From positions 1 to 26,291 of IMG/VR virus record IMGVR_UViG_3300044655_000029: DNA of 26,291 nt, one strand, 5' to 3'. Positions within the stretch are counted from its first letter, which is position 1. Each line of letters begins with the position of its first letter. Source of the stretch: a virus. Taxonomy: Duplodnaviria > Caudoviricetes. Position numbers and translations under genes: made by a program. Below the pieces are notes generated by a model, which searched no databases, was not told the DNA's origin, and saw only the letters and a list, made by a program, of their open reading frames with translations. Shown one piece after another: positions 2-26,291 of this stretch.

Positions 2-3000
2 ATGGGAATCAATATTAAAGGACTTGTTGAAGCGAACAAGGGAGATATTAAGGGAACTGTTGTAGGGTTTGCTAGAGCACTAGATGAACTAGATCCACTT
101 AATCGTGCTCGTGCTATTGAGCAACTGTTTGGTAAATTCCAGTTTGCTCGTTTGTCTACATTGTTCCAGAATGTATCTAAGGATGGAACACAGGCTGCAA
201 GAGCATTCCAGTTAACTGGCGCATCTGTTGAAGAGTTAGCAATTCTATCTGAGCGAGAAATGAAGAAAATCGAAGAGTCTGTCGGCGTTAAATTCCAGGC
301 TGCTCTAGAACAATTCAAGCAAGACATTATGCCATTAGGAAAGGCATTTCTTGAGGCAGTCACGCCAATAGTAAAGTTTTTTGGAAGTTTGTTTGAAAAA
401 TTTAATGGTCTTAGTGATCAAACTAAAAAAGTAATAACCACTATAGTTGGAGTTGTTGCTGGTATAGGACCAGTAGTTCTTATGACATTTGGTCTTTTGG
501 CTAATGGTTTGGCAAACTTAATTAAACTATTTGCAACAATAAGAGGCGGTATTGCAAAGTTAAACGGTCAAACAAATGTTTTGGGTGCAGGATTTAATTA
601 TGTAACACAAGAGCAGTTAGAGCAACAGGCAGCAGGACAAGCGCTACATAATACTCATACAAGATTAACTGAAATATTTAATATTGAAAAAACAGCAGCA
701 ATGCAATTAGCATCTGCATATTCATCTTTGACTTCTCAAATGAGAACTATGGCATCACAAAATCCTGCATTGTTTGCTGGAGGTGTTGGTGGGGCTAAAC
801 GTGCAGTAACAAAGTTGCCACCAATGAAAAAGTATAAAGATGGAATTATTTCTGTGCCAGGTCCAAAGGGTGCAGGAGACGTTGTTCCAGCAATGCTTTC
901 TCCAGGAGAAGCAGTTATACCTACAGAAACTACAGATAAGTATAGAGGTTTGATTACTGCAATGTTCCAGGATAAGGTTCCAGGCTTTATGGCTGGAAGA
1001 CTTCCAGGAGGGCCAGGCAGAGGTATACCACTTTCTGCAGGACCAGAAGCAGTTAGAAGAGCACAGCAAGCAAGAAATAGAAGAAGAGATGATGCTCGTC
1101 AAGGATACAACGAACCACATCCAGAGAGACAGTCAGGCGCTGTTTTTGTTGGCATGCCTAAGTCTGCTAAAGAAGCATCGCAGTCTAGAGAGATAGTAGA
1201 TAAGATAGCAAGGGATGTAAGTACTGGAAAGTATGGAAGTGTTGCTCCTACTGATTTCGGCACATTGCTTCAGCCATTCTCTGGAAGAAGTTTCCCTGTT
1301 AGAGGAGTTGGCGGGGTATACAGAAAGCCTAACGGAAAGATCGTAGTAGTAAAACCAACAATAGATGAAAAGACTGCATTAGCAGAAGTTCGTGCTACTC
1401 AGATTGCTAGAGAAGTTCATGGTTTGGTATCTCCAAAACAAAGTATTAAGACTATGATTGATCCAACAGATCCTTCAGGTCAAAGAAAGTTTATTGTTAT
1501 TGAGTCTCCATATGATCCAAGAATTGCAGCCATGGATGGTAAGTTCTCACAATCTGATATGGTTAAGCAACTTGTTGCATCTACATTAAGAGCAGATAAA
1601 GATTTACAGAAGGCAAACCTATCTGGAAACGTATTGGCTGATGTTGGAACTGCTGGAGTATTCGATAGAGCATCTGGCTTTAGAGATTTCTCTAAGGGAT
1701 TGCCAAGCATGGAGCAGCAAGCGCTTGTTAACTTGCTTGGTGTAAAGGGTGGTGCTAAAAAGTTCTTTGCACAAGAAACATCAGGCCTTGCTTCAAAGAT
1801 GACACCATCACAGTATGATGCTGCTATAAAGGCAGAAATAAATAAATCTATTCCAAGGCTAGAAAGAGTTATAAAGTCTTGGGATTTAACTCCAGACGAG
1901 CAAGTTGTATATAACAACATGCTTGAAAGACTTAGGGCTGGAGCAAAAACAGATTGGTCGCAACTTCATTCTGTTCATGCTCGTGCAGGAAACGGAGTTG
2001 TAAAGGCAATTGAGGGAATAGATCCAAAGGCAACAAATTCAATTGCAGAAGAGCAACTTAGAAAATATCTTCTTCCACCAGGAACACAAGAAAAAACTTT
2101 AATAGAAGAACTAAAGCGAACTGCAAATAATGATTTTATCAGAGAACTAGAAAAGGTTGATCCTCAAAGAAGAGCAGTTATCGAGGCAGCATGGAAGGGT
2201 GGAGTAGCAGCAGTACCACCATCTGGCAGAGAGCAATCTTTCACTTCTCCAAGACAAACACAGTTTATGAATGAACTTAGCAAGATGCACCCAGTCATGG
2301 TAAATGGTGAAACAAGATATATTCATAAGCAAGACCTGGATGCATTTTTAGCAGACCCAGATGGAAGGGCAAAATATTCTAGATCAGCGAAGCAAGTTAC
2401 AGACATGATGCTTTACCGAATGGGAGTTATTCCAAACGATAAGGGCAGACTTGTTTCTGGAGGAAAGTTCCAGGGAAGATTTGCAAGCATTGAACCTTTT
2501 GTAACAGCATTAAGATCAACTGGAAAGCAGGCTGGTGGTGGAAAGGCAAATATATCAAGTATCGTAAAGCCATTTGCCACAAAAGAAATTCAAGAATACA
2601 ATGCAAGAATCGGTAATCCCCTTACAACCAAAACAGGAAGAGCCATGTTGGCTGCTGGATATACTCCAGACGAAGTTAAAAGTTTATTAAAAGAAAATCT
2701 TTCACATATAAAGCAGGAAGTTACAGGTCGCCAAGGCGCACTAAAGATGAAGACTGGCGAGGCATTATATGACGCCAGAATTTTAAACAACTACATGAAT
2801 GCAAAGAGAAGAGGGTTAAACATACTCGATATCTTTAATAAAGACAATGTACTTGGTTTATCAGAAATAGAAAAGAAAGAATATAGAAAAGCAGCAGAAT
2901 TTATGGCAAGAGGAAGCCATCCAAAAAATCCACAAGAAAGAATGTTGCTTGCAAAAGCAGCGCAATTAGATCAGCGTGTTATTGATTATCAGGCAAATGG

Positions 3001-6000
3001 TGGCAAGGTAGCAGCCAAGTATTTACCAGCAGATTTAAGAACACCAAAAATGCTACTCACCTTATTATCAGATCCTCAATTCCAGCCAGGTAAAGTAATG
3101 AACCTTGCTGCTCAAAGAGCAGATGAAGTACTTGTTGCTGCAAAGAGAGGTGAAAGCCTTGTTAACAGAGATTTGACTGCTAAAGAAAAGATTAATAGTA
3201 GTAACAGTTCTCCTCTACCAAAGGGTACAGTTGGCGTTGATGAAAGGGGAAGACGTACTTCAGATAACGTAGTTGTTAGAAGGAGACAGGGTCAAGCAGT
3301 TGCAACTGCATCACAGGCTGCAAGACTTAGAATGCTTCCTGGTTTTGAAGATGGAGATAAAACTTTACGTGGCGGAGGAATAACTAATCCTACTAGACGT
3401 CAAGGAGAGATAGCAGTAGATCTACGTAGAAAAGGTTTTAGCCAGGCAGAAATTGATAAGACATTAAGAAAACTTGCAAAGAAAGAAATAAGGGCTAAGG
3501 AAGTAGCAGTTGCTGCAACAGAAAAAGCAGCAAGAACTGAAGCAGCAAGAGAAAAAGAACAAGCAGCAAATAACAAAAAACAAACTGAGGCTGCAAGAAA
3601 AAGGTTCCTTGAGAATGAGCGTAGAGCACAATTAAATGCTGCACAGGCAAAATACTACGATGCTGCAGTAAAAGAAGATCAACAGAGAACATTAAAACAA
3701 TTAAAGCAAACACAAAAAGCAGACAGAGAACAGCGCAAACAAGTTCGCCAAGAAAAGGTAAATAGATTCTCTGGCGGAGCCTCAATGGCCCTTGGAACTG
3801 CAGGTATGGGCCTAATGATGGCTGGACAACAAACTGCTGGTATGGTAGCAATGGGTGCATCCGCAGTTGCTGGAATGGCTCCTATGCTTGCTGGAATGGG
3901 TCCTATAGGATGGGCTATAACTGGGCTAACTGCTGCTGCTGGAGCATTCTATTTAACTGACAAGGCAGCAAAGAAAGCAGCAGAGTCACAGTCTAAATAT
4001 GTTGATTCAATTACAGCAACTACAGAAAAGATGTCAAAGATAGGGCAACTAACCAACACTGTAGGTGCTAGTGAGATTTATGCAAGAAAAAGACAGACTG
4101 GCGCTGCAGATAGATATACTACTGGTTTTGAAAGAGGTAAGCAACAGTTCGGTGAAACATTTATAGATAGCGAAGTTGGTAAATCAATATTTGAATCATT
4201 TAAGCAAAACATGACTGCTGGCGGAATAGATGCAGTTAAGGCAATATCAGTTCAATTAGCAGCATACGTTTCTGATGGAGTTATGACAGCAGAGCAAGCG
4301 CATAGCGTTGCTTCACAAATCGGTATTGAATTAAACAATACAACATTGATATCACAGATTAGTGGACAACTACTAGACCTAATCGGTCCAGAGGGACAAG
4401 ACTTAACTAAAGATCCACTAAATGTTAGAATGAATTTAATTACAGAGCAAAGAAAGTTATCTACTGGAGCAGTTAAAAATCTATCTAAAGATATAGATGA
4501 GAATTTGCCAAGCACTGAAGAGTCTGTTATAGAAAGATACAAAAGATTATTTAACCCTAAAAAGGCATGGGAAGAAGCAATAAAGCCTATCTTTACTGAA
4601 ACTGATGCAGAAAAGTCAGCAGCACAAATAGCAGCACTTAATGCTAATAACTTAGAGTTAAACTTAGCACAACAAGACTCTTTATCAAAACAATATGATA
4701 CTGAAATTAAAAAATTACAAGCACAAAAGGCAGCAACTTCGGATAAGGCAAAACAAAAAAAGATAGATGATGAAATACTAAATCTTGAAGGTCGTAAGCA
4801 GTCAGGACTTGATGCATTAAGAGAAAAGAATAGGGCAATTTTAAATGATCAGATTAAAGCATTTAGAACTGCATCTAAAAATGATCAAACCAAAGACGCA
4901 TTTTTTAATTCATTAAACTCTCAAATAGCCACTAAGTATGAAGGAAATCCTTTTGCAAAAACATTTTTACAAAAATCTGCAGACAAGTTACAATCTGAAG
5001 AACTAGAAGTAAAGATTAAAACAGTTGTTGCATCAGGGGATCTTGGTGTTGAATCTGGAGAAAGACTCATTGATATTTTTACAGGTAAGGATGGCACCGT
5101 TGATGAAAAAGGATTAGAGAGAAACTTAACATTAGCATTAACAAAACATGATCCAGGAGCAGTTACACAGTTAATTAATAGCCTCGGTGGAGTAGAGGAT
5201 GAAGTAGCAAAAAAGATTCTTGTAGATGTTCTAAAAAAGAATCCACAAGAGTTTGAAAAGACTGCCTCTGCAATAGCACTGGTTCAAAAGATGGCTGGCA
5301 AGGAAGTAAACATTGAAGCATTCTTCTCTTCAGAAAATGCACTAGCAAACCTTGAAGATTTACAAAAGGCATTAGAAGAAGTAGAAAAGATAGATACTCC
5401 AATAACAAAAACAGCATTAATGGAAATGAAAAATATTGGCGGGGTTAGTTTAGAAGGACTTATTCCTCTATGGGGTCAATGGGAAAATCTTCCAGACGAA
5501 ACTAAGAAAACTATTATTCAAGAATACATTACAGTACAAAAAACAATTACCGAAGGTGATGTCAGTGCTGAAATTGCACGAAGGGTTGCAACTGCTGATA
5601 AAAAGAAACAGGGATGGATTAATGCTTATTACAATACTCCAGCAGGAAGAGAGAAAGTAAGAAATGAACTTGCTGGACAAAGAACAATGCAGGCAGTAAA
5701 TCAAGATATTGCAAATGCTGAGGCTGGAAAGTTTAAGGATGACGAAAAGGGTGGTGGCAGTAAAGCAGATCCATTTGCAGACGTAATGAAGCGTCTTAAG
5801 AATGTTAGAAATGCTGCTCTAAATGCTGCTGGTGGATTTAAAGAATTACAAAAGGCAATGGAGGCAGCAGGCAGCAAGTCTGTCGCAAATAAGTTTGTTG
5901 GTATAGAACAGCAACTAATGAACAAGGGTTATAGCCAAGACTTTATTGACTTTATTACACAACTAGACCCAGAAGAGCAGAAGAAGTTTGGAAGCACTGC

Positions 6001-8791
6001 AACAAAGGCTGGAAGCAAAAAGTATAAAGAGTTTGATTACGAAACTGGAAAGATGAAAACCAGAACTCAGAAATACAAAAAGGGAGATTTTGTATTAACT
6101 GATGAAGGAAACGCAATGCGCCAAGGAATGGATAAGGCCGTTGTAGGAGAGTTCCAGATAGAGCAACAGAATGTACTTAAGAACATAGACGAACAAAATA
6201 AAGCATATGCAAAATTAAAGGCTGCTGGTCTATCTAATTTAGAAATAGAAAAGGCTATGGAGAATCAAGCATACGTTACAGCCATAGCAACTGGACAAAT
6301 AACAGCACAAGAATTAAAGACAAATAATGCTTTAACTAAGCAGGCTGTGCTAAGAGAACAGATAAATGGTTTGGTAGACAAAACAAAAACTAACCAAACA
6401 AGAATTGACGCTTTAAAGAAAACCCCAGAACTAATTAATTTCTTGTCTACTTTTAAAACATTAGATGCAGAAGGCAAGGAAGTTGCACTTTCTATTACGT
6501 CTATATATGATGCAATTCAGGACCCAGAAGATTTAATTAAGATGGTTGCAATAATGGATGCAATTAAGGCTGGAACATATGATGCCAAGGATGGCATGAA
6601 GCAATTATTTGATTTAATTAGTAGTTCAGAATCCGCAAAGGATCTTGAGAAAAATCTATTAACACCTCTTGAAAAGTTCCAAAAGGCTTATGATGCAGCA
6701 ATGAAGATTTTTGATGCATATAAGACAATGGACGAATATACATTAAAGGCTCCAAAAAATTCAGTAACACCAGAACTTGGTGGAAAAACATTTAAGCAAT
6801 TGAGTAGGACAAAGACAGAGAGCGACGAAGCCCTATCAGCAATGAATGCTGAACTTGCAATTTATGAACATCAGATTTCTATGATTCGTGACGAGATTGC
6901 AAAGATTGAATCTGATATTGAAAACATGGATGTTAAGGATTTAAACCTTACCGTAGATGGACAGAAGGTCACTGGTAAATTAAAGTATGTCCTAGAAGAT
7001 CTTAAGGAAAAGATTGATGACTGGGAAAGAGAAATAGAGATGAAGTATGAGCGTCCTATAAAGACGCTTCAGGATGAATCTAATGTCCTTTCTCATGACC
7101 TAGAGGTTATGGATTATCAAGCAGGAAAGATTAATGAAAAGTATGACAAGCAAGCAGAAGCATTAGCCGAAGTTCAAAAGGTTAACGACTCTATTATTCG
7201 TCAACAAGAACAGCAACTTGATTTGGCTGATGCCTTAACTCAAGGAGATATTTCTGCTGCTGCCCGTGCTGCCCAAGCAATGAGGGCTGGCAATGCAGCA
7301 GATTTTGCTACTGGCCAAAGCGATGCATTACAGCAATCAAGAGAAAATGAAATCAATGGATTAACAAATGCTAATGGATTAACAAGAGAACAAATTGAAG
7401 AAAGACGTTGGGAAATATCACAACAAATATATGCACTTGAAAATGATCCAGCCAGACTTGCTCTTCAAAAGAGTATACAAGAAACTAAAGATGCTATATA
7501 TGCGATAGAAGAGGCAAGAGAAGTTAAACTGCTTGCTATTAGAGCACACGAAGAAAGAATTTATCAAATTGAAAAAGATAAGATTCTTCCATTGCAAACT
7601 GCAATTAATCTTGAAACAACTAAAAATCTTGCGCTAGAATATCAGTTAGTCGTTCTTGGAAACATTATTGCTGCAAATGATAGAAATAGAGTAGTTGCTG
7701 GACAAACAAGAGATCAATGGGAAGAGATGCTAACCCAGATGACCTTGATGGACGAAAAACTTAGAAAAGAATTAAAAGATGCATTGGATAGTTTTAACGC
7801 TCAGAGCGGTACAGCAGAAGATATCTGGACCAGAATTAAGGCTCTTTATGATGCTATTAAAGATAAGACTGTAACTATTACAGTTAATTACGTGACTAAC
7901 GGTTCTACAGGAGATGGCTCTACTGGTGATGGATCTACAGGAGATGGCTCAACTGGCGATGGATCAACTGGCGATGGTTCAACAGGAGATGGTTCAACAG
8001 GAGATGGTTCTACAGGCGATGGTTCTACAGGCAATGGTTCAACAGGTAAAGGCTCTACAGGAGGCTCTAAGGGTGGTTCTGTCGTAACTGGCGGGGTATC
8101 TGGAGTAAACCCAGCAACAACACCAGTACCATATAAGTCTACATATAAGAGCATTACTGATCCAACAGCCAAGGCACATGTAAAGAGTCTTGAAGCAAAT
8201 ATATCATCCAACATTGCACAAAACTCTACATTGTTTGCACAAAAGGTTGCAGAAAAGAAAGCAACACAAAATGCTGGATCTGTTGCTGGACAGCATCTTG
8301 CAGATCTTAATAGAATGGGAAATGCTGCTGCCCTTGCTAAAAAATACGATGGGCCTGAAGCAGCAAAGAAAAAGGCAGAGGCAGTACAAAAAGCAAATGC
8401 AGATAAAGCAGCAAAAGCAAAGGCTGCAGCAGATCTTAAGAAGTTCGGAGGCAACGCAGCAGCAGCAAATTCATTTGCTAACTGGGGAAAGAGTAAGTCT
8501 GCTGGTGGCATAATAAAGAGATTTGCTAAGGGCGGACCAATAATAGGAACAGATGTTATTCCATCAATGCTTACTCCAGGTGAATTTGTTATGAGCAGAT
8601 ATGCTGTCGAATCATTTGGTCTTGATAATATGAAGGCTATAAATAATGGAGAGTCAGTTGGCGACTCAGTGTATAATTATAGTATTAATGTAAACGTTAA
8701 GTCTGATGCAAACCCAGACGAAATCGCACAGGCTGTAATGACAAACATACAGAGAGTAAATTCTCAGAAGTTAAGGAGCGTTAGAATATAA
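2..8791 (+). CDS. Giant tail tape measure protein (5'-truncated by window edge) with internal cargo domains
   Basis: 2929-aa ORF open from the window edge. The N-terminal part looks like the end of a PhageMin_Tail-type TMP domain (RARAIEQLFGKFQFARLSTLF). It has hydrophobic segments at ~431-541 and ~3767-3960, long Ala/Glu/Lys/Gln coiled-coil regions, and a typical TMP C-terminus (FAKGG..GTDVIPSMLTPGEFVM..YNYSINVNV). It lies directly upstream of tail-tip genes. The ATG at 2 is probably internal. Confidence 0.92.
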   Translation: MGINIKGLVEANKGDIKGTVVGFARALDELDPLNRARAIEQLFGKFQFARLSTLFQNVSKDGTQAARAFQLTGASVEELAILSEREMKKIEESVGVKFQAALEQFKQDIMPLGKAFLEAVTPIVKFFGSLFEKFNGLSDQTKKVITTIVGVVAGIGPVVLMTFGLLANGLANLIKLFATIRGGIAKLNGQTNVLGAGFNYVTQEQLEQQAAGQALHNTHTRLTEIFNIEKTAAMQLASAYSSLTSQMRTMASQNPALFAGGVGGAKRAVTKLPPMKKYKDGIISVPGPKGAGDVVPAMLSPGEAVIPTETTDKYRGLITAMFQDKVPGFMAGRLPGGPGRGIPLSAGPEAVRRAQQARNRRRDDARQGYNEPHPERQSGAVFVGMPKSAKEASQSREIVDKIARDVSTGKYGSVAPTDFGTLLQPFSGRSFPVRGVGGVYRKPNGKIVVVKPTIDEKTALAEVRATQIAREVHGLVSPKQSIKTMIDPTDPSGQRKFIVIESPYDPRIAAMDGKFSQSDMVKQLVASTLRADKDLQKANLSGNVLADVGTAGVFDRASGFRDFSKGLPSMEQQALVNLLGVKGGAKKFFAQETSGLASKMTPSQYDAAIKAEINKSIPRLERVIKSWDLTPDEQVVYNNMLERLRAGAKTDWSQLHSVHARAGNGVVKAIEGIDPKATNSIAEEQLRKYLLPPGTQEKTLIEELKRTANNDFIRELEKVDPQRRAVIEAAWKGGVAAVPPSGREQSFTSPRQTQFMNELSKMHPVMVNGETRYIHKQDLDAFLADPDGRAKYSRSAKQVTDMMLYRMGVIPNDKGRLVSGGKFQGRFASIEPFVTALRSTGKQAGGGKANISSIVKPFATKEIQEYNARIGNPLTTKTGRAMLAAGYTPDEVKSLLKENLSHIKQEVTGRQGALKMKTGEALYDARILNNYMNAKRRGLNILDIFNKDNVLGLSEIEKKEYRKAAEFMARGSHPKNPQERMLLAKAAQLDQRVIDYQANGGKVAAKYLPADLRTPKMLLTLLSDPQFQPGKVMNLAAQRADEVLVAAKRGESLVNRDLTAKEKINSSNSSPLPKGTVGVDERGRRTSDNVVVRRRQGQAVATASQAARLRMLPGFEDGDKTLRGGGITNPTRRQGEIAVDLRRKGFSQAEIDKTLRKLAKKEIRAKEVAVAATEKAARTEAAREKEQAANNKKQTEAARKRFLENERRAQLNAAQAKYYDAAVKEDQQRTLKQLKQTQKADREQRKQVRQEKVNRFSGGASMALGTAGMGLMMAGQQTAGMVAMGASAVAGMAPMLAGMGPIGWAITGLTAAAGAFYLTDKAAKKAAESQSKYVDSITATTEKMSKIGQLTNTVGASEIYARKRQTGAADRYTTGFERGKQQFGETFIDSEVGKSIFESFKQNMTAGGIDAVKAISVQLAAYVSDGVMTAEQAHSVASQIGIELNNTTLISQISGQLLDLIGPEGQDLTKDPLNVRMNLITEQRKLSTGAVKNLSKDIDENLPSTEESVIERYKRLFNPKKAWEEAIKPIFTETDAEKSAAQIAALNANNLELNLAQQDSLSKQYDTEIKKLQAQKAATSDKAKQKKIDDEILNLEGRKQSGLDALREKNRAILNDQIKAFRTASKNDQTKDAFFNSLNSQIATKYEGNPFAKTFLQKSADKLQSEELEVKIKTVVASGDLGVESGERLIDIFTGKDGTVDEKGLERNLTLALTKHDPGAVTQLINSLGGVEDEVAKKILVDVLKKNPQEFEKTASAIALVQKMAGKEVNIEAFFSSENALANLEDLQKALEEVEKIDTPITKTALMEMKNIGGVSLEGLIPLWGQWENLPDETKKTIIQEYITVQKTITEGDVSAEIARRVATADKKKQGWINAYYNTPAGREKVRNELAGQRTMQAVNQDIANAEAGKFKDDEKGGGSKADPFADVMKRLKNVRNAALNAAGGFKELQKAMEAAGSKSVANKFVGIEQQLMNKGYSQDFIDFITQLDPEEQKKFGSTATKAGSKKYKEFDYETGKMKTRTQKYKKGDFVLTDEGNAMRQGMDKAVVGEFQIEQQNVLKNIDEQNKAYAKLKAAGLSNLEIEKAMENQAYVTAIATGQITAQELKTNNALTKQAVLREQINGLVDKTKTNQTRIDALKKTPELINFLSTFKTLDAEGKEVALSITSIYDAIQDPEDLIKMVAIMDAIKAGTYDAKDGMKQLFDLISSSESAKDLEKNLLTPLEKFQKAYDAAMKIFDAYKTMDEYTLKAPKNSVTPELGGKTFKQLSRTKTESDEALSAMNAELAIYEHQISMIRDEIAKIESDIENMDVKDLNLTVDGQKVTGKLKYVLEDLKEKIDDWEREIEMKYERPIKTLQDESNVLSHDLEVMDYQAGKINEKYDKQAEALAEVQKVNDSIIRQQEQQLDLADALTQGDISAAARAAQAMRAGNAADFATGQSDALQQSRENEINGLTNANGLTREQIEERRWEISQQIYALENDPARLALQKSIQETKDAIYAIEEAREVKLLAIRAHEERIYQIEKDKILPLQTAINLETTKNLALEYQLVVLGNIIAANDRNRVVAGQTRDQWEEMLTQMTLMDEKLRKELKDALDSFNAQSGTAEDIWTRIKALYDAIKDKTVTITVNYVTNGSTGDGSTGDGSTGDGSTGDGSTGDGSTGDGSTGDGSTGDGSTGNGSTGKGSTGGSKGGSVVTGGVSGVNPATTPVPYKSTYKSITDPTAKAHVKSLEANISSNIAQNSTLFAQKVAEKKATQNAGSVAGQHLADLNRMGNAAALAKKYDGPEAAKKKAEAVQKANADKAAKAKAAADLKKFGGNAAAANSFANWGKSKSAGGIIKRFAKGGPIIGTDVIPSMLTPGEFVMSRYAVESFGLDNMKAINNGESVGDSVYNYSINVNVKSDANPDEIAQAVMTNIQRVNSQKLRSVRI
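1220..1990 (+). other. HipA/PI3-PI4-kinase-like domain embedded in the TMP
   Basis: Kinase motifs in the expected order: Gly-rich GVGGVY (1304-1321), beta3 VVVK (K at 1352), alphaC AE (E at 1385), catalytic loop D-x-D-L-Q-K-A-N (1595-1618), Mg-binding DVG (1640-1648), then a helical C-lobe ending ERL. Boundaries are approximate. Confidence 0.7.
7901..8065 (+). repeat. 11 tandem 15-bp units encoding (GSTGD)x8, GSTGN, GSTGK, GSTGG
   Basis: Units read directly, e.g. GGTTCTACAGGAGAT, GGCTCTACTGGTGAT, GGATCTACAGGAGAT, GGCTCAACTGGCGAT. Variation is almost entirely at third codon positions. Confidence 0.97.
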
Positions 8792-17175: not shown

Positions 17176-17484
17176 ATGACCGACAAGCAAAGTAAGTGGG
17201 CGTTGCTTAGTCGTTTTGACAAGCATTATAAGTTTAAGATGGGTCATGCTCCAACACATAATAAGTGGAAAGAGCAGAAGTCAGCAGAAATTCTTGTTGA
17301 GTCCTATACGCTAGAAACTTGCTATGCTTTGCTAGAGTACTATTTTGAAGTTACAGAAAATCCTACTTGGAATCATTTTTCTTATATTGCAGATGATATA
17401 CTAAAAGCAAAGATGATAGAAGAAAAAGATTTACATGATCGTGAACAACGCAAACAATTAGCAAAGGAGTGGTTGAGTGAATAA
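17176..17484 (+). CDS. Hypothetical helical protein upstream of helicase (possible loader/replication accessory)
   Basis: 102 aa, overlaps the DnaB start; function inferred from position only. Confidence 0.6.
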   Translation: MTDKQSKWALLSRFDKHYKFKMGHAPTHNKWKEQKSAEILVESYTLETCYALLEYYFEVTENPTWNHFSYIADDILKAKMIEEKDLHDREQRKQLAKEWLSE

Positions 17485-18703
17485 TACAGAATCTAAACTA
17501 ATCTCAGCCGTTCTTCAAGATAAGCAAGCGCATGTTTTGTTACAGGCAAATGTAGAGAACATCCTTACTACACATGTAGATGTGTGGCAGTTTATTAGAA
17601 AATATTATGAGTCAAATGGCACAGTGCCTCCTACAGATTTGGTTGTTGAAAAGTTTAGGGACTTTGATCCAGTTAGTGGCGTTGGTTCCACAAAGCATCA
17701 TCTTGAAGAATTACAGTCAGAGTATTTAACAAATAGTTTAAAAGATATTATTAGATCTGCTGCTACTGATGTACAGGGAGGTTTGGGATTAGATGCCCTT
17801 GAGTCTCTTATTACTAAAACAGCAGAACTTAGAAAAAATACAGCAGCAATTCGTGATATTGATGTTACAGATTTAGATTCTGCGGTTGCATATTTTGAAA
17901 ACCTAAAGAAGCAACAGGAGTCTGGAGCGCTTGGCATTAAAACAGGTTTGCCAGGTTTTGACAATTACTTACCTTCAGGAATTATGCCAGGGCAACTAGG
18001 AGTCTTCCTTGCATACCCAGGTATCGGAAAGTCTTGGTTGTCTCTCTATTTCGCTGTGCAGGCTTGGAAGCAGGGTCGTAGCCCTATGATTATCAGCCTT
18101 GAAATGTCTGAGGTCGAAGTTCGTAACCGTGTGTTTGCAATTATGGGAGAAGGCCTTTGGTCACATAGAAAGTTGAGTTCTGGTAATATTGAAATGGACA
18201 TGCTTAAGTCTTGGCATACAAAAACAGTTCAGGGTAGACCAGAGTTCCACATCATATCAAACGACACTGGTGGAGATATTAATCCAATGGTGCTTCGTGG
18301 AAAGATTGATCAGTACAAGCCAGACTTTGTAATTGTTGACTATTTACAATTGATGTCACCAAACCAAAAATCTGACAACGAAACAGTTCGAATGAAAAAC
18401 CTTTCTCGTGAATTAAAACTCATGGCTATTTCAGAGGAGGTTCCAATTATTGCTATCTCTTCTGCTACGCCTGACGATGTTACTAAACTTGAGACAGTCC
18501 CAACCCTTGGTCAAACAGCATGGTCAAGACAGATTGCCTACGATGCTGACTGGGTTCTAGCATTAGGTCGAGGTGCTAATAGCGACATTATTGAGTGTGT
18601 ATTTAGAAAAAACCGTAATGGTTTTATGGGAGAGTTCCTAGTTCAGGCTGATTTTGACAAGGGATACTACAGGTACAAGGATTATGAAGATAAGTCAGTA
18701 TAA
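17477..18703 (+). CDS. dnaB: DnaB-like replicative helicase (SF4)
   Basis: GTG start after SD AAGGAG; Walker A AYPGIGKS, SLEMS, Walker B VIVDYLQL, IAYDAD, Arg-finger KNRNG. Confidence 0.95.
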   Translation: MNNTESKLISAVLQDKQAHVLLQANVENILTTHVDVWQFIRKYYESNGTVPPTDLVVEKFRDFDPVSGVGSTKHHLEELQSEYLTNSLKDIIRSAATDVQGGLGLDALESLITKTAELRKNTAAIRDIDVTDLDSAVAYFENLKKQQESGALGIKTGLPGFDNYLPSGIMPGQLGVFLAYPGIGKSWLSLYFAVQAWKQGRSPMIISLEMSEVEVRNRVFAIMGEGLWSHRKLSSGNIEMDMLKSWHTKTVQGRPEFHIISNDTGGDINPMVLRGKIDQYKPDFVIVDYLQLMSPNQKSDNETVRMKNLSRELKLMAISEEVPIIAISSATPDDVTKLETVPTLGQTAWSRQIAYDADWVLALGRGANSDIIECVFRKNRNGFMGEFLVQADFDKGYYRYKDYEDKSV

Positions 18704-18704
18704 T
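18699..18704 (+). promoter_or_regulatory. -10 element TATAAT positioned for a leaderless transcript of the 18712 gene
   Basis: TATAAT overlaps the dnaB stop; 7 nt separate it from ATG 18712, with no SD. Confidence 0.4.
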
Positions 18705-18711
18705 ATGCTAC

Positions 18712-19038
18712 ATGGAGACATTTCAGCACAAGCCCATAAAAAGGTTTGCTTTGGACGGGGTCATTAATGATGACGCTGCCATATACAGATTACAGCAGGA
18801 GTATATCAGGCTACTGGTATCAGAGATGCGACTATCTGGCTATTCTCCAAGAATTGACATCGATCCACAATTTACATTATCATATAACGAAAACAAAAAT
18901 TACTTTGAATTTACATTAAGCGTATACGGAATATATATAGGGAGAAAGAAATCAGAATGGATACTAGGGATAGACGGAACCAAGCCAGTATATACACAGC
19001 AAATCAAATCAAAAGAGTACTCGCAGGATCTGGCGTAA
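18712..19038 (+). CDS. Hypothetical protein between helicase and primase
   Basis: 108 aa ORF filling the gap with protein-like composition; overlaps the primase by 82 nt. Confidence 0.7.
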   Translation: METFQHKPIKRFALDGVINDDAAIYRLQQEYIRLLVSEMRLSGYSPRIDIDPQFTLSYNENKNYFEFTLSVYGIYIGRKKSEWILGIDGTKPVYTQQIKSKEYSQDLA

Positions 19039-19901
19039 CTGTAGAAAAAGAAGCAGAGTCTGAGTACATAGTATTTTGCCCATTCCATTCGAATCATAGA
19101 ACCCCTGCTGGAGAAATAAATAAATATACTGGATTGTTCTTTTGTTTTTCATGCAGTAAAACAGCAGACCTAATAGAACTAGTAATGCATTTTTCCAATA
19201 GAACATATTTTGAGTCTGTTAGATTTATCAAAAGTAAAGAAGTTGAGACAAACATACTGTCTGAAGTTAATAATAAGTTAATTGAAAAAGAAGAGTGGAC
19301 AGAGTTTGACATGTCTGTTGTCAACAGACTTCATGAGCAGGCGCTTAACTCAGAAAGAGCAAAAGAGTATTTTGTTAAAAGAAAGATTACTAAAGAGTCT
19401 GTTGTAAAGTTTAAACTTGGTTATTCTGAAAACCAAGATATGATCTCTATCCCAGTACAAAATAATGATGGACTGTGTGTAGGGTTTGTTGGAAGATCTG
19501 TTGAGGGTAAAGACTTTAAGAATACATCCAAACTTCCAAAGTCTAAATTATTATTTAATTTAAATAGAGTAAAGACTGCATCTAAGGTTTATGTAGTGGA
19601 GTCATCATTTGATGCCATTAGGTTAGACCAGGTTGGCTTTCCAGCCGTTGCAACGTTGGGTGCTAACGTATCATCCAAACAAATAGATTTGCTTCAAAAA
19701 TACTTTAGTGATATAATTATTATTGCTGATAATGATGAGGCAGGCGGTAACATGAAAGAAAAGATAGTCGAAAGACTAAATGGAAATGTTACTGTGATTA
19801 ACTTAGATAAACAATATAAAGATATAGGCGACATGGACGACAAGTCAATAAAGGAATTGGAATACCAATTTGACAAATCAATATTGTCTATGCTACAATA
19901 G
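18957..19901 (+). CDS. dnaG: DnaG-like DNA primase (CHC2 Zn finger + TOPRIM)
   Basis: CPFH...CFSC zinc finger, GFVGR, VVESSFDA, ATLG, DNDEAG, KDIGD. Confidence 0.93.
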   Translation: MDTRDRRNQASIYTANQIKRVLAGSGVTVEKEAESEYIVFCPFHSNHRTPAGEINKYTGLFFCFSCSKTADLIELVMHFSNRTYFESVRFIKSKEVETNILSEVNNKLIEKEEWTEFDMSVVNRLHEQALNSERAKEYFVKRKITKESVVKFKLGYSENQDMISIPVQNNDGLCVGFVGRSVEGKDFKNTSKLPKSKLLFNLNRVKTASKVYVVESSFDAIRLDQVGFPAVATLGANVSSKQIDLLQKYFSDIIIIADNDEAGGNMKEKIVERLNGNVTVINLDKQYKDIGDMDDKSIKELEYQFDKSILSMLQ

Positions 19902-19914
19902 AAAAAACAAGGAG
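19870..19914 (+). promoter_or_regulatory. sigma70-type promoter and SD for ssb-dnaE-recA
   Basis: TTGACA (19870-19875), 18-bp spacer, TACAAT (19894-19899) with extended TG; SD AAGGAG (19909-19914); ATG 19920. Confidence 0.7.
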
Positions 19915-19919
19915 AAATA

Positions 19920-20579
19920 ATGAATAAAATAGTAGGACTAAAGAATATAAATGCTTTACTAGATAAGAAGACAGATGAAAACGGTCCAAAGGTTCGCTGG
20001 CTAAAGTTAGCCGATGGACAGGCAGTAAAGATTAGATTTATTGAAGAGTTGGACGAAGACTCTGCAAACTATAACGAAAAGCGTGGACTTGCATTCGTTG
20101 TTAAGGAACACACAAATCCAAAGGATTACAAGCGCAAGGCTGTAGACACACTAGAAACAGAAGGTCGTGACTGGGCTGAAGAGATGTACCGCAAGGATCC
20201 AAAGGGAAATAGTGGATGGCGTGGCCGTCTTCGTTTCTATTGCAACGTTCTTGTCGACGACGGTATCGAAGCACCATATGTTGCTATCTGGTCAATGGGT
20301 ATCAGCAAGCAATCATCATTTAATACAATCCGTGAGTATGCACTTGAAACAGGAAGCATCTCAAACGTTGTTTGGAAGTTAAAGCGTAATGGTCAGGGAA
20401 CTGAAACATCATACACTTTGATTCCTTCTGCTCCAGATAAGGAGCCTTTTAACTGGGAAGGTGTTGAACCATATGCTCTAGAGAAGGCATTGCGTCGAGT
20501 TCCATATGCGGAGCAAGAAGCATTCTATCTAGGTTTTGATTCACCTTCATCTACATCAGCGACGAATATCGACTGGTAG
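19920..20579 (+). CDS. Single-stranded DNA-binding protein (gp32-like/actinophage type)
   Basis: 219 aa between primase and polymerase; pattern KIRF...R.Y.NV...KLKRNGQGTETSY.L.P; low-complexity tail ending in acidic/aromatic IDW. Confidence 0.75.
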   Translation: MNKIVGLKNINALLDKKTDENGPKVRWLKLADGQAVKIRFIEELDEDSANYNEKRGLAFVVKEHTNPKDYKRKAVDTLETEGRDWAEEMYRKDPKGNSGWRGRLRFYCNVLVDDGIEAPYVAIWSMGISKQSSFNTIREYALETGSISNVVWKLKRNGQGTETSYTLIPSAPDKEPFNWEGVEPYALEKALRRVPYAEQEAFYLGFDSPSSTSATNIDW

Positions 20580-20582
20580 TAG

Positions 20583-23500
20583 ATGAACTACGTACCACTA
20601 CACTTACATACTCACTTTTCATTGTTCGACGGTATTGGGTTGCCGTCTGAATATGTAGATCGTGCTACAAAATTGGGTATGCCTGCAATTGCTATTACAG
20701 ACCATGGCTCCCTTTCTGGCCACAGAGAAATGTATCGTATTGCTAAAGCAAGTGGTATAAAGCCTATTCTTGGCATAGAAGGTTATATGTGTGAAGATCG
20801 CTTTGATCAAAGAGATAAAAGCGAGAGAGCCGATCAACTAGATATGGTTTATAACCATATAATACTTCTAGCCAAGAATAAGGTAGGTTTAGAAAATTTA
20901 AACAAATTAAATGAAATTGCATGGACAGAAGGATATTACAAAAAGCCTAGAATAGATTTTGAAGTTCTTGCAAAATACAAAGAAGGAATTATTGTTTCCT
21001 CTGCATGTCCTAGCGGAATTATCGCTAAGTCAATTGAACTTGGTGAACTTGGCATGGCAAAGAAATATATTAAATGGTTCAAAGAACAATTTGGCGATGA
21101 TTACTATCTTGAAGTAATGCCACATAATGATGACTCAATAAATAGAAATATTTTATTGTTAGCCGATGAATTTAAAGTTAAGCCAATTGTTACTCCAGAC
21201 TGTCATCACGTAGATCCATCTCAGAAAGAAATTCAAGAATTAAAACTTATCTTGAATACATACTCTAATAAGATTCAGAAGGATGCTACATACGAAAAGT
21301 CTAAAAAGCAAGGGGACTTAATGAGGCGTCTGGATTACCTATATGGCGCAGATAGACAAATGTCATTTAATAAGTTTGATATTCATTTATTATCTTATGA
21401 AGAGATTCAGGCTGCCATGGAGAAGCAGGCAATCTGGAGAACTGACATTTATGAAAATACAATCGACCTTGCTAACAAAATTGAAGATTATGATATTCAG
21501 GATAACCTGAACCTTCTTCCAGTTCAGTATAAAAATCCAGACAAGCAATTAAAAGAATTGGCTATGGCTGGTTTGGCAGAAAAAGGTCTTGACACAAACC
21601 AAGAATATCTTGATAGACTTGAAGAAGAGTTAACTGTAATTCAAGATAAAAAGTTTGGTCCATACTTCCTTGTTGTTCAAAGCATGATCTCTTGGGCAAA
21701 GAAGGAAAAGATTATGGTTGGGCCAGGTCGTGGATCATCTGCTGGTTCTTTACTTTGTTATGCACTGGGCATCACTGACATCGATCCATTAAAGCATGGA
21801 CTACTATTCTTCCGATTTATTAATCCAGAGCGTAATGACTTTCCTGATATTGATACAGATATTCAAGATACTCGTCGTGACGAAGTAAAAGATTATCTTG
21901 TTAGGCAGTATAAGCATGTTGCATCTATCGCAACATTTTTAGAATTTAAAGATAAAGGTGTTGTACGAGATGTTGCTCGTGCATTGAATATTCCATTAGT
22001 AGATGTTAATAAAGTTTTGAAGTTAGTAGATACTTGGGATGAGTACTGCACATCAAAAACTACTGCATGGTTTAGAGAGAAATATCCAGAGGTGGAGCAA
22101 TATGGAGAACAACTTCGTGGTCGCATTAGAGGTACTGGCATACACGCTGCTGGTGTTGTCACTAGCAAAAATCCTATTTTTAGGTACGCACCGATGGAGA
22201 CACGTAATTCTCCTGGTTCCGATGAGCGTATTCCTGTTGTGGCAGTTGATATGGAAGAGGCTGAAAAAATTGGTCTTATCAAGATCGACGCACTTGGACT
22301 TAAGACCTTAAGTGTTATTAATGACACAGTAAATATAATTAAGGAAAGAGAAGGAGTTGACATAGACTTATTGAATATAGATATGTCAGATCCAAAGGTT
22401 TATGAGATGCTTTCACAAGGATACACAAAGGGAATCTTTCAGTGTGAAGCAACGCCATATACAAACCTACTTGTTAAAATGGGTGTCAAAAATCTAGAAG
22501 AGTTATCTGCCTCAAACGCTTTGGTTCGTCCAGGTGCTATGAATACTATTGGCAAGGACTATATCGAAAGAAAGCACGGCAGACAGGCAGTAAATTATTT
22601 ACACCAAACTATGAAGCAGTTCACAGAAGAAACATATGGGTGTATCCTATACCAAGAGCAGGTCATGCAGGCTTGCGTTCAACTTGGAGGGATGTCATGG
22701 TCTGAAGCGGACAAGGTTCGTAAGATCATTGGTAAAAAGAAAGATGCTAGAGAATTTGATGTGTTTCGTGATCGTTTCGTTGACGGTGCTAGTAAGTTTA
22801 TTAGTCCTAATCAGGCTCGTGATCTATGGCATGACTTTGAGGCGCATGCGGGTTATTCGTTCAACAAGTCTCATGCGGTTGCTTACTCTACGCTCTCGTA
22901 TTGGACGGCATGGCTAAAGTATTATTATCCACTAGAGTTTATGTACTCATTATTAAAAAATGAAAAGGACAAAGATGCGAGAACTGAATATCTTATTGAA
23001 GCGAAAAGAATGGGTATTAGCATTAAATTACCTCACATTAACGATTCGGATATTGATTTTAAAATTGAGGGTAAGGGTATTAGGTTTGGACTCTCGGCGA
23101 TCAAGTTTATCTCTGATAAGATTGCAGAACGATATATATCGGCACGACCTTTTAAGTCTTTCGAGGAAGTTAAAACCTTTACATTTACGAAAGGTAATGG
23201 AGTCAACAGCAGAGCACTTGAAGCGTTAAGGCTGATTGGAGCAGCAACATTCCCTGATAATCCAAGAAATGATGATGAGTTACGAGAACACCTTTATGAA
23301 TATTTGGGGTTGCCAGAATTTACACAAACAGTTCCATCACACTATCATGCATTTATAAATTCAGTAGAAGACTTTGAGGAAAAGGGTTCTTTCATTCTTA
23401 TGGGAATGGTTAAGGGTATTAAGCGTGGTAAAGGGTGGTCTCGTGTTGAGATATTGGATAAGACTGGAAGCATAGGAGTATTTGATGAAGAACAAACTAC

Positions 23501-23861
23501 AATTGAGGCTGGACGAAGTTATATTGCACTCTGTACTGATAACAGAATTGTTAGTGCTGTTCCTGTGGACGAACTAAAGGGATCTGATGCAGCGCTGATT
23601 AAGTTTTTAAATTATCGAATGCTTCCATATAAAGATGATGAGTTATTTGTTGTATCGTTTAAACCAAGAATAACAAAGGCAGGTAAAAAAATGGCGTCTC
23701 TTACTCTAGCAGATACTTCCAGAGAGTTGCATTCTGTGACAGTATTCCCTACAGCATTTGCTAAGGCATACATGAAAATAGAAGAAGGCCACGCATACAA
23801 GTTTGAATTTGGCAAAACCAAAGATGGTACCGTAATATTGGAGGATGTAAATGTCGGTTAG
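20583..23861 (+). CDS. dnaE: DNA polymerase III alpha subunit (family C, DnaE-like)
   Basis: PHP domain (HLHTHFS, TDHG, GIEGY, SACPSG, PDCHH), GPGRGSSAGS, catalytic PDIDTD, HAAGVV, KIDALGL, YQEQVM, YSFNKSHA, HhH and C-terminal OB folds. Confidence 0.97.
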   Translation: MNYVPLHLHTHFSLFDGIGLPSEYVDRATKLGMPAIAITDHGSLSGHREMYRIAKASGIKPILGIEGYMCEDRFDQRDKSERADQLDMVYNHIILLAKNKVGLENLNKLNEIAWTEGYYKKPRIDFEVLAKYKEGIIVSSACPSGIIAKSIELGELGMAKKYIKWFKEQFGDDYYLEVMPHNDDSINRNILLLADEFKVKPIVTPDCHHVDPSQKEIQELKLILNTYSNKIQKDATYEKSKKQGDLMRRLDYLYGADRQMSFNKFDIHLLSYEEIQAAMEKQAIWRTDIYENTIDLANKIEDYDIQDNLNLLPVQYKNPDKQLKELAMAGLAEKGLDTNQEYLDRLEEELTVIQDKKFGPYFLVVQSMISWAKKEKIMVGPGRGSSAGSLLCYALGITDIDPLKHGLLFFRFINPERNDFPDIDTDIQDTRRDEVKDYLVRQYKHVASIATFLEFKDKGVVRDVARALNIPLVDVNKVLKLVDTWDEYCTSKTTAWFREKYPEVEQYGEQLRGRIRGTGIHAAGVVTSKNPIFRYAPMETRNSPGSDERIPVVAVDMEEAEKIGLIKIDALGLKTLSVINDTVNIIKEREGVDIDLLNIDMSDPKVYEMLSQGYTKGIFQCEATPYTNLLVKMGVKNLEELSASNALVRPGAMNTIGKDYIERKHGRQAVNYLHQTMKQFTEETYGCILYQEQVMQACVQLGGMSWSEADKVRKIIGKKKDAREFDVFRDRFVDGASKFISPNQARDLWHDFEAHAGYSFNKSHAVAYSTLSYWTAWLKYYYPLEFMYSLLKNEKDKDARTEYLIEAKRMGISIKLPHINDSDIDFKIEGKGIRFGLSAIKFISDKIAERYISARPFKSFEEVKTFTFTKGNGVNSRALEALRLIGAATFPDNPRNDDELREHLYEYLGLPEFTQTVPSHYHAFINSVEDFEEKGSFILMGMVKGIKRGKGWSRVEILDKTGSIGVFDEEQTTIEAGRSYIALCTDNRIVSAVPVDELKGSDAALIKFLNYRMLPYKDDELFVVSFKPRITKAGKKMASLTLADTSRELHSVTVFPTAFAKAYMKIEEGHAYKFEFGKTKDGTVILEDVNVG

Positions 23862-24864
23862 CATTGAAGATGTATTAGCACAGTTAAACCCTAAGTTAAG
23901 AAAGAGCATATTGGTAGGAGATGAAGTCCCTAAGACTGAATATGCAGCAACACCTAGTCACGGGCTTAATCGTGCCCTCAATGGCGGACTTCCATATGGA
24001 AGACAGGTATTGATATGGGGATCAAAGTCATCTGCTAAATCATCTTTATGCTTACAGACAATTGCATTAGCGCAACAAGAAGGAAAGGTCTGTGCATGGA
24101 TTGATGCCGAAATGTCCTATGATAAAGCGTGGGCAGAGAAGTTAGGTGTAGACACATCAAAACTAATTGTTTCTCAGGCAAGAACAATTAATGAAATGGT
24201 TGATGTCGGTGTAAATCTAATGGAGGCTGGAGTAGATTTAATTGTTGTAGATTCAATTACGTCTCTTCTACCTGCTATTTATTTTGAAAAAGATTCTGAC
24301 GAACTAAAGCAATTAGAAAACACAAAACAAATTGGTGCCGAGTCTCGTGACTTTAGTAATGCATGGAAGATGATTAACTACGCTAACAACAAGGTCAAGC
24401 CAACACTGTTTATATTAATTAGTCAATCACGAAATAATATTAATGCAATGTATACAAGCCAACAGCCAACTGGTGGACAGGCTACTAAGTTTTATTCCTC
24501 TACTGTTGTTAAACTATTTTCATCAGAATCAGATAACCAAGCATTGAAGGGAAAGATTTATGTTGGTGACAAGGCTATTGAAGAAAAGGTTGGTAGAAAA
24601 GTTAGATGGGAACTCCAGTTTTCAAAAACTAGTGCTGCTTTCCAGTCTGGTGAGTATGATTTCTATTTTAGAGGCGATAATTTGGGCATTGACTCTATCG
24701 CTGATCTTGTTGATACTGCTGAATCTTTGGGTATAGTTGAAAGAACTGGAGCATGGTATGTTCTTCCAGATGGGTCAAAAGTTCAAGGTAGAGATGGATT
24801 TGTTAACAGAGTAAGAGAGGATCTTGATCTACAAGAAATGATTAAGGCTAAGATCAGTGGATAA
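23851..24864 (+). CDS. recA: RecA/UvsX-like recombinase
   Basis: GGLPYGR, variant Walker A GSKSSAKSS, WIDAE, Walker B IVVDS, ISQ.R, TGGQATKFYS, GAWY, QGRD. Confidence 0.93.
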   Translation: MSVSIEDVLAQLNPKLRKSILVGDEVPKTEYAATPSHGLNRALNGGLPYGRQVLIWGSKSSAKSSLCLQTIALAQQEGKVCAWIDAEMSYDKAWAEKLGVDTSKLIVSQARTINEMVDVGVNLMEAGVDLIVVDSITSLLPAIYFEKDSDELKQLENTKQIGAESRDFSNAWKMINYANNKVKPTLFILISQSRNNINAMYTSQQPTGGQATKFYSSTVVKLFSSESDNQALKGKIYVGDKAIEEKVGRKVRWELQFSKTSAAFQSGEYDFYFRGDNLGIDSIADLVDTAESLGIVERTGAWYVLPDGSKVQGRDGFVNRVREDLDLQEMIKAKISG

Positions 24865-25033
24865 GTACATGATAGTTGAAGGAAAATTTCCTTGCAAAAC
24901 TTGTAAAAAAGAAGTAAAGACTATCAGAGTATATACCTCAACTGGTATGGCATCTTGGATGTGCTCTGAAAAACATTTATCAGAGGTACATTTATTTAAA
25001 GTTGGATATAAGAAAGTAAAAAGAGATGAGTGA
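24857..25033 (+). CDS. Small Zn-ribbon protein (58 aa), absent from the ORF track
   Basis: Translated by hand from GTG 24857: MDKYMIVEGKFPCKTCKKEVKTIRVYTSTGMASWMCSEKHLSEVHLFKVGYKKVKRDE*. It has CxxC-x19-CxxxH and fills the recA-resolvase gap, overlapping both neighbours. Confidence 0.75.
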   Translation: MDKYMIVEGKFPCKTCKKEVKTIRVYTSTGMASWMCSEKHLSEVHLFKVGYKKVKRDE

Positions 25034-25316
25034 GAGAGGCGAGAGTAAAAGAATAGGTGCCAAGCAGCACAAAAATTCTGGTAGAAATACCAAGAAAGGC
25101 GATGCTACTTGGGAAAATTTTACTGTAGATTTTAAAGAGAACTCAAAATCTTTTACATTAAACCAGGATGTGTGGGCTAAGGCAGTCACAGATGCTATAC
25201 GAAATGGCAACGACCCAGCAATTGTTGTGGTACTTGGCGAGGGTAACAAGAAGGTAAGACTTGCTATAATAGAGTTAGAACTACTAGAACAGATGGTGAA
25301 TAATGGAACAGAGTAA
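25026..25316 (+). CDS. Holliday junction resolvase-like PD-(D/E)xK nuclease (Hjc type)
   Basis: 96 aa: N-terminal E, SG....GD, VDFK, and C-terminal P.IVV; located downstream of recA. Confidence 0.75.
   Translation: MSERGESKRIGAKQHKNSGRNTKKGDATWENFTVDFKENSKSFTLNQDVWAKAVTDAIRNGNDPAIVVVLGEGNKKVRLAIIELELLEQMVNNGTE
25262..25270 (+). promoter_or_regulatory. Extended -10 TGCTATAAT within the resolvase gene
   Basis: Perfect TGn-TATAAT about 30 nt upstream of ATG 25303. Confidence 0.4.
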
Positions 25317-25608
25317 TACAACGCTTGATATGGTCAATGGTTTGTCAGAAATAGCAGAGTATATGGAGGACGAGGAGTTAACCTCTGCCCTAACATTTAT
25401 TGCTAAGATAATTATAAAGCCAGATATCCCCATGAGCGTGGCTACTGTAGAGATAGTTAGACTACAGGCAATTGCAGCCAAGATGGCATTCAGGGCTACA
25501 TGGATGGCTAATGTGGATAAGTCAAATAGGGGAAAGAAAAATATTTACTATACAGCAGCAGAGTCAATAAACAGTCTTGTGTCTGCTCTTAAATACATAA
25601 TTAAGTGA
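25303..25608 (+). CDS. Hypothetical all-helical protein
   Basis: 101 aa, overlaps the upstream gene, protein-like composition. Confidence 0.7.
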   Translation: MEQSNTTLDMVNGLSEIAEYMEDEELTSALTFIAKIIIKPDIPMSVATVEIVRLQAIAAKMAFRATWMANVDKSNRGKKNIYYTAAESINSLVSALKYIIK

Positions 25609-25612
25609 TATC

Positions 25613-25637
25613 TGCTATAATTAATACAAACAAAGGA
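25613..25637 (+). promoter_or_regulatory. Extended -10 promoter TGCTATAAT plus SD AAGGA
   Basis: Intergenic TGCTATAAT (25613-25621); AAGGA at 25633-25637; ATG 25643. Confidence 0.6.
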
Positions 25638-25642
25638 TAACA

Positions 25643-26291
25643 ATGACTAAAAATTTATTGAAGCAAGTAATGATAAAAAATCCAGACAAAACCTATGAGT
25701 CTAAAGAAGACACAAGTTTTATTGACGGAATAATAGAAAAAATAGAATCTGGTTACATGACAAAAACAAAGCCAAGATTTAGTAAGAAGACAAATTTTTC
25801 AGCATCTGCTTTAACTTACGGCGCAGGTGAGTGTCCAAGATACTGGTACCTTGCATTTGATGGGCAGGTTCATTATGATAATTCTGACGCATTCGGTGTT
25901 GCTAATAGAACTAACGGAACCCTTGGTCACGAAAGAATTCAGGAAGCCATTCAGGCTTCAGGACTACTTGATGAAGATATGGAATTCGATCCCATTGAAA
26001 GAAAATATAATAAGCAAACTCATCCAGCAATGGAGTTTAGAGTTAAATTAGACGACCCACCTTTTGACGGGTATGGAGATGTCATGCTTAATCATAATGG
26101 TGAAAGAATCATTGGTGAAATCAAAACAATAATGAATGAAGGTTTTGAATACAAAAAGAATAGCAGAAAGCCTAAGATGGGTCATCTTATGCAATTGCTA
26201 ATCTATATGAAGGTTTGGAAAGTCGGCAAGGGTGTAATGATTTATGAAAATAAAAATAATCATGAGTTGTTGACTTTACCAGTAGTAGTAA
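25643..26291 (+). CDS. Cas4-like/RecB-family PD-(D/E)xK exonuclease (3'-truncated; not in ORF track)
   Basis: Translated by hand: MTKNLLKQ...FSASAL...CPRYWY...GTLGHE...EFRV...GYGD...EIKT...HLMQLLIYM; open to the window end. Confidence 0.88.
   Translation, partial: MTKNLLKQVMIKNPDKTYESKEDTSFIDGIIEKIESGYMTKTKPRFSKKTNFSASALTYGAGECPRYWYLAFDGQVHYDNSDAFGVANRTNGTLGHERIQEAIQASGLLDEDMEFDPIERKYNKQTHPAMEFRVKLDDPPFDGYGDVMLNHNGERIIGEIKTIMNEGFEYKKNSRKPKMGHLMQLLIYMKVWKVGKGVMIYENKNNHELLTLPVVV

Follow-up and report, generated by a model that had tools for sequence, protein, structure and literature searches.

A predicted kinase-fold domain carried as an optional cassette inside tape measure proteins of lake-water phages

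The window analysed here (26,291 nt) is a 26-kb stretch of virus DNA, IMG/VR record IMGVR_UViG_3300044655_000029, with a completeness of 24%. Its start falls within an open reading frame of 2,929 aa (nt 2-8791, + strand), which is followed by minor tail genes. A replication block then occupies nt 17477-26290, with DnaB helicase, primase, a DnaE-type polymerase, RecA and unannotated ORFs. The first ORF matches PHROG 10030 (E 5e-29) and, in a tblastn search (76 records), annotated tape measure proteins (TMPs) of ~130-kb Streptomyces phages. A relative with a full-length TMP of 3263 aa (L001) has 334 more N-terminal residues than the window ORF, and TIGR01760 matches its N-terminus, the part missing from the window, with an E of 3e-35. 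PF10145 (PhageMin_Tail) was found in homologues. The TP901/PhageMin_Tail core and the position of a very long gene upstream of tail genes thus bear out the preliminary description of this DNA, in which the carrier protein was taken to be a TMP; the gene is 5′-truncated in the window.

The TMP is built, in order, of the core, a first hydrophobic segment (TM1), a junction module, the kinase, a second cargo domain, a second hydrophobic segment (TM2), a coiled region, a G-S-T-G-D repeat and another junction module, all encoded on the + strand. TM1 (nt 443-544) is predicted to insert into the membrane; its hydropathy peak is 2.32, at L001 aa 482-500, and it is conserved in relatives. The junction module, ~60 aa with the pattern K-Y-x-x-G...P-A-M-L-x-P-G-E...F-x-x-G, lies directly upstream of the kinase cassette (nt 821-997), and a second copy lies near the C-terminus (nt 8513-8692). 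The cassette (nt 998-2002) consists of a lead-in with a conserved G-M-P motif and the kinase-fold domain (nt 1220-1996), and is closed by a degenerate short junction motif, K-A-I-E-G (nt 2003-2017), which is K-K-[YL]-x-x-G in relatives. The second cargo domain follows at nt 2141-3115. TM2 (nt 3764-3958), Gly/Ala-rich and also predicted to insert into the membrane, closes the cargo zone; its peak is weak (1.52), and TM1 and TM2 are compatible with more than one count of membrane crossings. The tandem repeat (nt 7901-8063, 15 bp x 10.9) likely forms a flexible linker, and lies in a TMP region that varies between relatives. The preliminary description had placed a kinase-like insert at nt 1220-1990 of the TMP. 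Such an insert is present at that position with all motifs in the frame of the ORF, but the inserted unit is wider, about nt 998-2002. Two features went unmentioned in that description: the kinase cassette is optional, and it sits in a multi-cargo zone next to a repeated junction module.

The kinase motifs occur in the order and spacing, and at the positions, first reported. GVGGVY is at nt 1304-1321. The candidate catalytic set comprises a Lys at nt 1352, a Glu 11 residues later at nt 1385, an Asp at nt 1601 within D-K-D-L-Q-K-A-N, an Asn at nt 1616 and the Asp of DVG at nt 1640, their roles being deduced from how the motifs are spaced and from the predicted secondary structure, and not from superposed coordinates. 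Among homologues covering each position, these residues are kept in 135/136 (K), 140/140 (E), 147/148 (D), 147/147 (N) and 147/147 (D), and all five are jointly present in 133 of 135, while residues beside them vary. A G-x-S motif preceding strand 2 (nt 1283-1291) is near-invariant as well, and its Ser is a candidate site for phosphate binding or autophosphorylation. The dN/dS of the domain is about 0.23, which indicates purifying selection. HipA has a D-x-H-x-x-N catalytic loop, and the Gln that replaces the His in the window had been regarded as unusual. This column in fact varies widely (S 56, Q 35, G 24 and A 16 of 148 homologues), at least four sequences have His among the 60 of 73 loop variants listed, and the loop consensus, R-x-D-K-D-L-x-x-x-N, is without it. 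To our knowledge, active relatives likewise lack this His.

An AF2 model of the domain (pLDDT 90) has a bilobed kinase fold whose C-lobe contains five helices at high pLDDT (residues 164-254). CotH ranked first and CtkA third among the fold matches, both of them protein kinases. The Foldseek TM-scores were low (0.35-0.39), and protein and lipid kinases were nearly tied in the ranking. From this fold and the K/E/D/N/D set, the domain is predicted to be an atypical kinase of the PI3K/HipA/CotH type. It has both features in common with CotH, PI4KII-alpha, CtkA, MavQ, Fam20 and HipA, and differs from these in that identity to them is only 8-14%, Pfam and PDB sequences give no match, the loop His and an antitoxin domain are absent, and the domain is embedded in a TMP. 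Searches of Pfam, PHROGs, NCBIfam and PDB sequences gave no match to it. Neither the HipA_C/HipA_2 profiles (0/28 members at E up to 10) nor PF00454, PI3_PI4_kinase (28/28 without a match), recognised the family, and a feature neighbour toward HipA in the Atlas reached only 0.92. No D-x-H-x-x-N loop characterises the family, and no HipB-type antitoxin lies next to the domain in the window, where it sits inside the TMP gene with tail genes downstream. The initial label, HipA/PI3-PI4K-like, therefore holds for the structural clan of HipA, CtkA and PI3/4-kinases, and fails for sequence membership in the HipA or PI3/PI4K families.

A scan of 1.84 billion representatives found 171 clusters at 50% identity that carry the domain, and a profile scan counted 264 matching stretches. 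Among the 150 of 171 representatives listed, 112 have a TMP core and 34 more another TMP context; the other 4, short or without a placed context, appear to be fragments or chimeras. Short matches generally were mostly on short contigs or resembled TMP fragments or chimeras, and no intact stand-alone kinase gene was found among the same 150. All 80 IMG/VR loci of the first scan have the domain within the TMP; in one, L056, the TMP is frameshifted many times along its length, likely by sequencing or assembly error. The domain was not found in cultured-phage records or GTDB genomes. The kinases thus form a large family undetected by Pfam, PHROGs and NCBIfam. An internal promoter for the kinase was considered and rejected (2 sites versus 2.2 expected).

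When 80 loci were chosen by their TMP core, 35 carried the kinase and 45 did not, although among the latter four break off before absence could be judged and a fifth has a premature stop. In L087 and L088 the core is 87-88% identical to that of the window and the kinase is absent. Both nest inside a kinase-bearing clade (SH-aLRT 97) in a quick tree that places 3 changes of kinase presence among 84 rows. Both flanks of the cassette can be aligned between L030 and L087, with a difference of 308 aa from one shared anchor to the other, and complete TMPs with the kinase are about 340 aa longer than those without. The kinase was not found elsewhere in any of five kinase-free relatives. Among the contigs of four lake runs, none was seen to skip the whole cassette. 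The kinase domain of L001 (near aa 742-998) is 100% identical to that of the window. Compared with L001, L003 is identical in the core (100%) and nearly so in the kinase (98%) but has only 38% identity in the second cargo domain; L063 has 87% in the core and 55% in the kinase, and L007 76% and 86%, respectively. These identities indicate that parts of the TMP move independently of one another. Since core and kinase identities correlate overall (Spearman 0.73), inheritance is mostly vertical.

The kinase shares its zone with other cargo. In 100 TMPs with both TM anchors, near-identical sequences included, the region between TM1 and TM2 holds the kinase in 64/64 cases, the second cargo in 61/61, a related His-motif domain in 17/17 and an ART-like domain in 2/2, while LysM lies beyond TM2 in 4/4. 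Two proteins without a TM2 anchor, and so outside this count, have the kinase far toward the C-terminus: P0115 at aa 2212, and P0150, where it comes behind an M23 peptidase, at aa 2862. By plain hydropathy, a hydrophobic segment flanks the kinase on both sides in only 117/157. The second cargo domain has conserved or invariant S-H, Asp, Asn and His-Pro motifs and a confident model (pLDDT 89, pTM 0.63), and had no match in Foldseek, the Atlas, PDB profiles or PHROGs; an HNH nuclease was considered and found no support from Foldseek, the Atlas or the PDB profile search. It is more variable than the kinase and is swapped independently of it, differing between L001 and L003 and being present without the kinase in L087/L088.

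ART-like domains occur between junction modules in the same TMP as the kinase in L076 (aa ~949-1130), P0127 (aa ~788-970) and P0098. They were called by eye in L076 and P0127 from R/S/E-x-E motifs; a first regex search found no such motifs, and Pfam gave no match. An HAD phosphatase lies downstream of the kinase in eight proteins and one divergent one (P0037, P0038, P0040, P0056, P0066, P0074, P0079, P0161 and P0156), and a cytidylyltransferase-like domain lies upstream of it in P0136 (aa 730-859). Other TMPs carry CHAP plus LysM (P0044), NlpC/P60 (P0143), M23 (P0150) or OmpA (P0050, aa 2678-2771). CHAP, NlpC/P60, M23 and OmpA sit farther along the TMP than the cargo of the kinase zone, except in P0150, where M23 precedes the kinase. 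These Pfam results cover 35 of 150 representatives as well as 60 of the 89 cargo zones.

TMPs longer than 2,500 aa contain one to five copies of the junction module, often immediately on both flanks of the kinase. Because its profile matches TMPs of solved structures, with two copies in that of phage Douge (8zdo_S, E 7e-22) and one in 8rk3_A, the module is a general TMP element. For many unrelated contigs in the four lake runs the match is confined to nt ~850-930 and is lost on both flanks, a pattern that fits a shared recombination block but also plain conservation. Depth peaks and loose contig ends accumulate at the same module DNA (nt 850-930). A short junction motif stands directly behind the kinase in only 75/209 cases, compared with a 7% background, for a pattern chosen post hoc. 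The repeated modules likely serve as recombination points at which cargo is gained, lost or swapped.

At least half of the sampled words of the DNA were found in 14 lake-water runs, two of them flagged as possible sources of the record, and RNA runs contained only small shares of it. Lake-water contigs from four other runs, belonging to other studies, reproduce the DNA, among them X3, which covers nt 1112-2113 with zero differing letters. The actinobacterial host of the preliminary description is supported indirectly: whiB, described as an actinophage marker in the accessible text of PMC6802176 and PMC10202952, was found in 5/5 relatives, which are 100-120 kb long and 93-100% complete and of which four have the kinase and one lacks it. 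This gene was seen in the relatives and is not within the window, and from it the virus likely infects actinobacteria. A host assignment by whiB matches to MAG contigs L160 (Beijerinckiaceae) and L161 (Aquiluna) was not used, as these may be mis-binned phage DNA. Their whiB genes are 80% and 62% identical to that of G001 and phage-like. In the accessible parts of the literature, TMP diversification has been noted in close lake actinophages (bioRxiv 655167), and ARTs of freshwater actinophages are reported with no link to a TMP stated there.

We propose that the cassette kinase is packaged unfolded in the tail as part of the TMP, leaves with it when DNA is ejected, and refolds once it has reached the host membrane's cytoplasmic side, either still tethered or cleaved off at the modules. 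There it would phosphorylate host proteins at the start of infection and serve, where the DNA enters, in anti-defence or takeover. We give this reading a probability of about 50%. It best explains an in-frame domain in a TMP with a kinase-fold model, near-invariant catalytic residues, purifying selection, clean presence or absence, and a place between two hydrophobic segments. A cytoplasmic location is suggested because ATP- and NAD-type enzymes share the zone and wall-binding domains are mostly past TM2. Kinase activity, a protein substrate and the role in anti-defence or takeover are what we infer from these features. Counted against the proposal are the placement in P0115 and P0150, the hydropathy counts, the weak TM2, the low TM-scores, the near tie of kinase types and the frequency of the closing motif. 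Published accounts, as far as their accessible text goes, bear on several steps. Deletion of 114 aa from the TM4 TMP shortens tails by ~20 nm (PMC1796659), and by this analogy, in which a TMP cargo motif counts toward tail length, the kinase would be packaged in virions. TMPs are often proteolysed, sometimes with loss of an internal segment, so the cassette may not stay in virions (PMC1796659). TMPs are released, and a channel spanning the envelope has been proposed for them (PMC13033339); during injection, a biotin ligase fused to ManZ labels the TMP of lambda, at the place where SNIPE attacks DNA (PMC13190303).

Other readings of the same domain were weighed. The kinase could act late and in the producer cell, where the TMP is synthesised in a cytoplasm that contains ATP; as a CotH-like structural kinase it would phosphorylate proteins of the tail or the host while virions assemble, and would then be carried along passively or excised. 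CotH, a kinase of a structural coat, heads the fold matches, processing inside a TMP is on record (PMC1796659), and the domain could presumably fold only outside the tail lumen. Yet close relatives make tails without it, being fused to the ruler adds about 300 aa to the TMP where a late enzyme could be free-standing, and an intact stand-alone copy was not found among the representatives listed; we consider late action rather unlikely. Delivery might also be as proposed but with a lipid as substrate, so that phosphorylation of host phosphatidylinositol or another membrane lipid aids entry or blocks superinfection. The two protein kinases among the leading fold matches, the absence of a PI3_PI4_kinase Pfam match in all 28 members, the small size of the domain (259 aa) and the fact that a bacterial role of the phosphorylated-lipid product is not established make this unlikely.

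ATP is not normally available outside the membrane. This argues, together with the near-invariant ATP-binding residues and the HAD, ART-like and nucleotidyltransferase-like domains in the corresponding region, against an ejected kinase that stays outside, acting on the cell envelope or serving as a decoy or receptor-contact domain. The M23 domain ahead of the kinase in P0150, the freedom that hydropathy leaves in the number of TM1/TM2 crossings, and known TMP cargo that targets peptidoglycan (PMC1796659, accessible text) favour such a placement, which we regard as quite improbable. Least probable, and very much so, is a pseudokinase or inert spacer retained for tail length. Nearly all members do lack the HipA/PI3K His, and the cassette is dispensable, but the retention of the five catalytic and metal-binding residues amid varying neighbours and the low dN/dS dispel most of this earlier concern.

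T7 kinase gp0.7 is expressed after DNA entry. Its early action on host functions and defences suggests by likeness that the cassette kinase may have an anti-defence role; the analogy is one of role; gp0.7 has a DNA-binding domain, and the TMP kinase would arrive as a virion protein (PMC13645617, accessible text). The following comparisons likewise draw on the accessible parts of the papers cited. Closest in design are the polyvalent and MuF/portal effectors, which are proposed to be injected with DNA and in which, as here, kinase, ART and nucleotidyltransferase domains are strung on one virion protein with variation of cassettes between relatives; they ride head proteins (MuF, portal), whereas the present cassette rides the tail ruler (PMC5512222, PMC9503650). 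The word ‘tape’ has no matches in the main texts of these two papers, and lists of architectures belonging to PMC5512222 may contain TMP fusions. The polyvalent-protein kinase has lost the whole C-terminal subdomain and belongs to phages of Verrucomicrobia-Chlamydia and Bacteroidetes (PMC5512222), whereas the modelled TMP kinase keeps a helical C-lobe of the CotH/PI4KII/CtkA fold type. Mycobacteriophage TMP motifs (TM4 motif 3, Rpf) are likewise dispensable enzyme modules that add tail length; they are muralytic and act outside the membrane, in contrast to a cassette that needs ATP and lies between two hydrophobic segments (PMC1796659). The Sle1/Tme effectors of actinobacterial contractile injection systems also pass swappable domains through a tail tube on a TMP-like scaffold, but carry them C-terminally in a bacterial system, not as internal cassettes of a free-phage TMP (PMC13277306). 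Our literature search, which covered few subscription papers, turned up no description of a kinase within a TMP.

The known roles of TMPs are those of ruler, DNA conduit and carrier of cell-wall hydrolases. Tentatively, and with less confidence than we place in the action of the kinase itself, we suggest that in a large and abundant group of freshwater actinophages the TMP may be a polymorphic effector polyprotein. A cytoplasm-facing loop between TM1 and TM2 would carry exchangeable enzymes between junction modules; those proposed are kinases of the new family, phosphatases of the HAD type, domains resembling ARTs or nucleotidyltransferases, and the fold-unmatched domain. Delivered before phage gene expression, these would disarm defences at the DNA entry site, making the TMP a tail counterpart of the head-packaged polyvalent proteins. 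L030 and L087 offer a natural pair with and without the cassette, with a predicted difference in tail length of roughly 45-55 nm. If true, a TMP that delivers an ATP-dependent enzyme would give phages a new way to bring in effectors made beforehand, and would set an effector down where incoming DNA is attacked by membrane-bound defences such as SNIPE.
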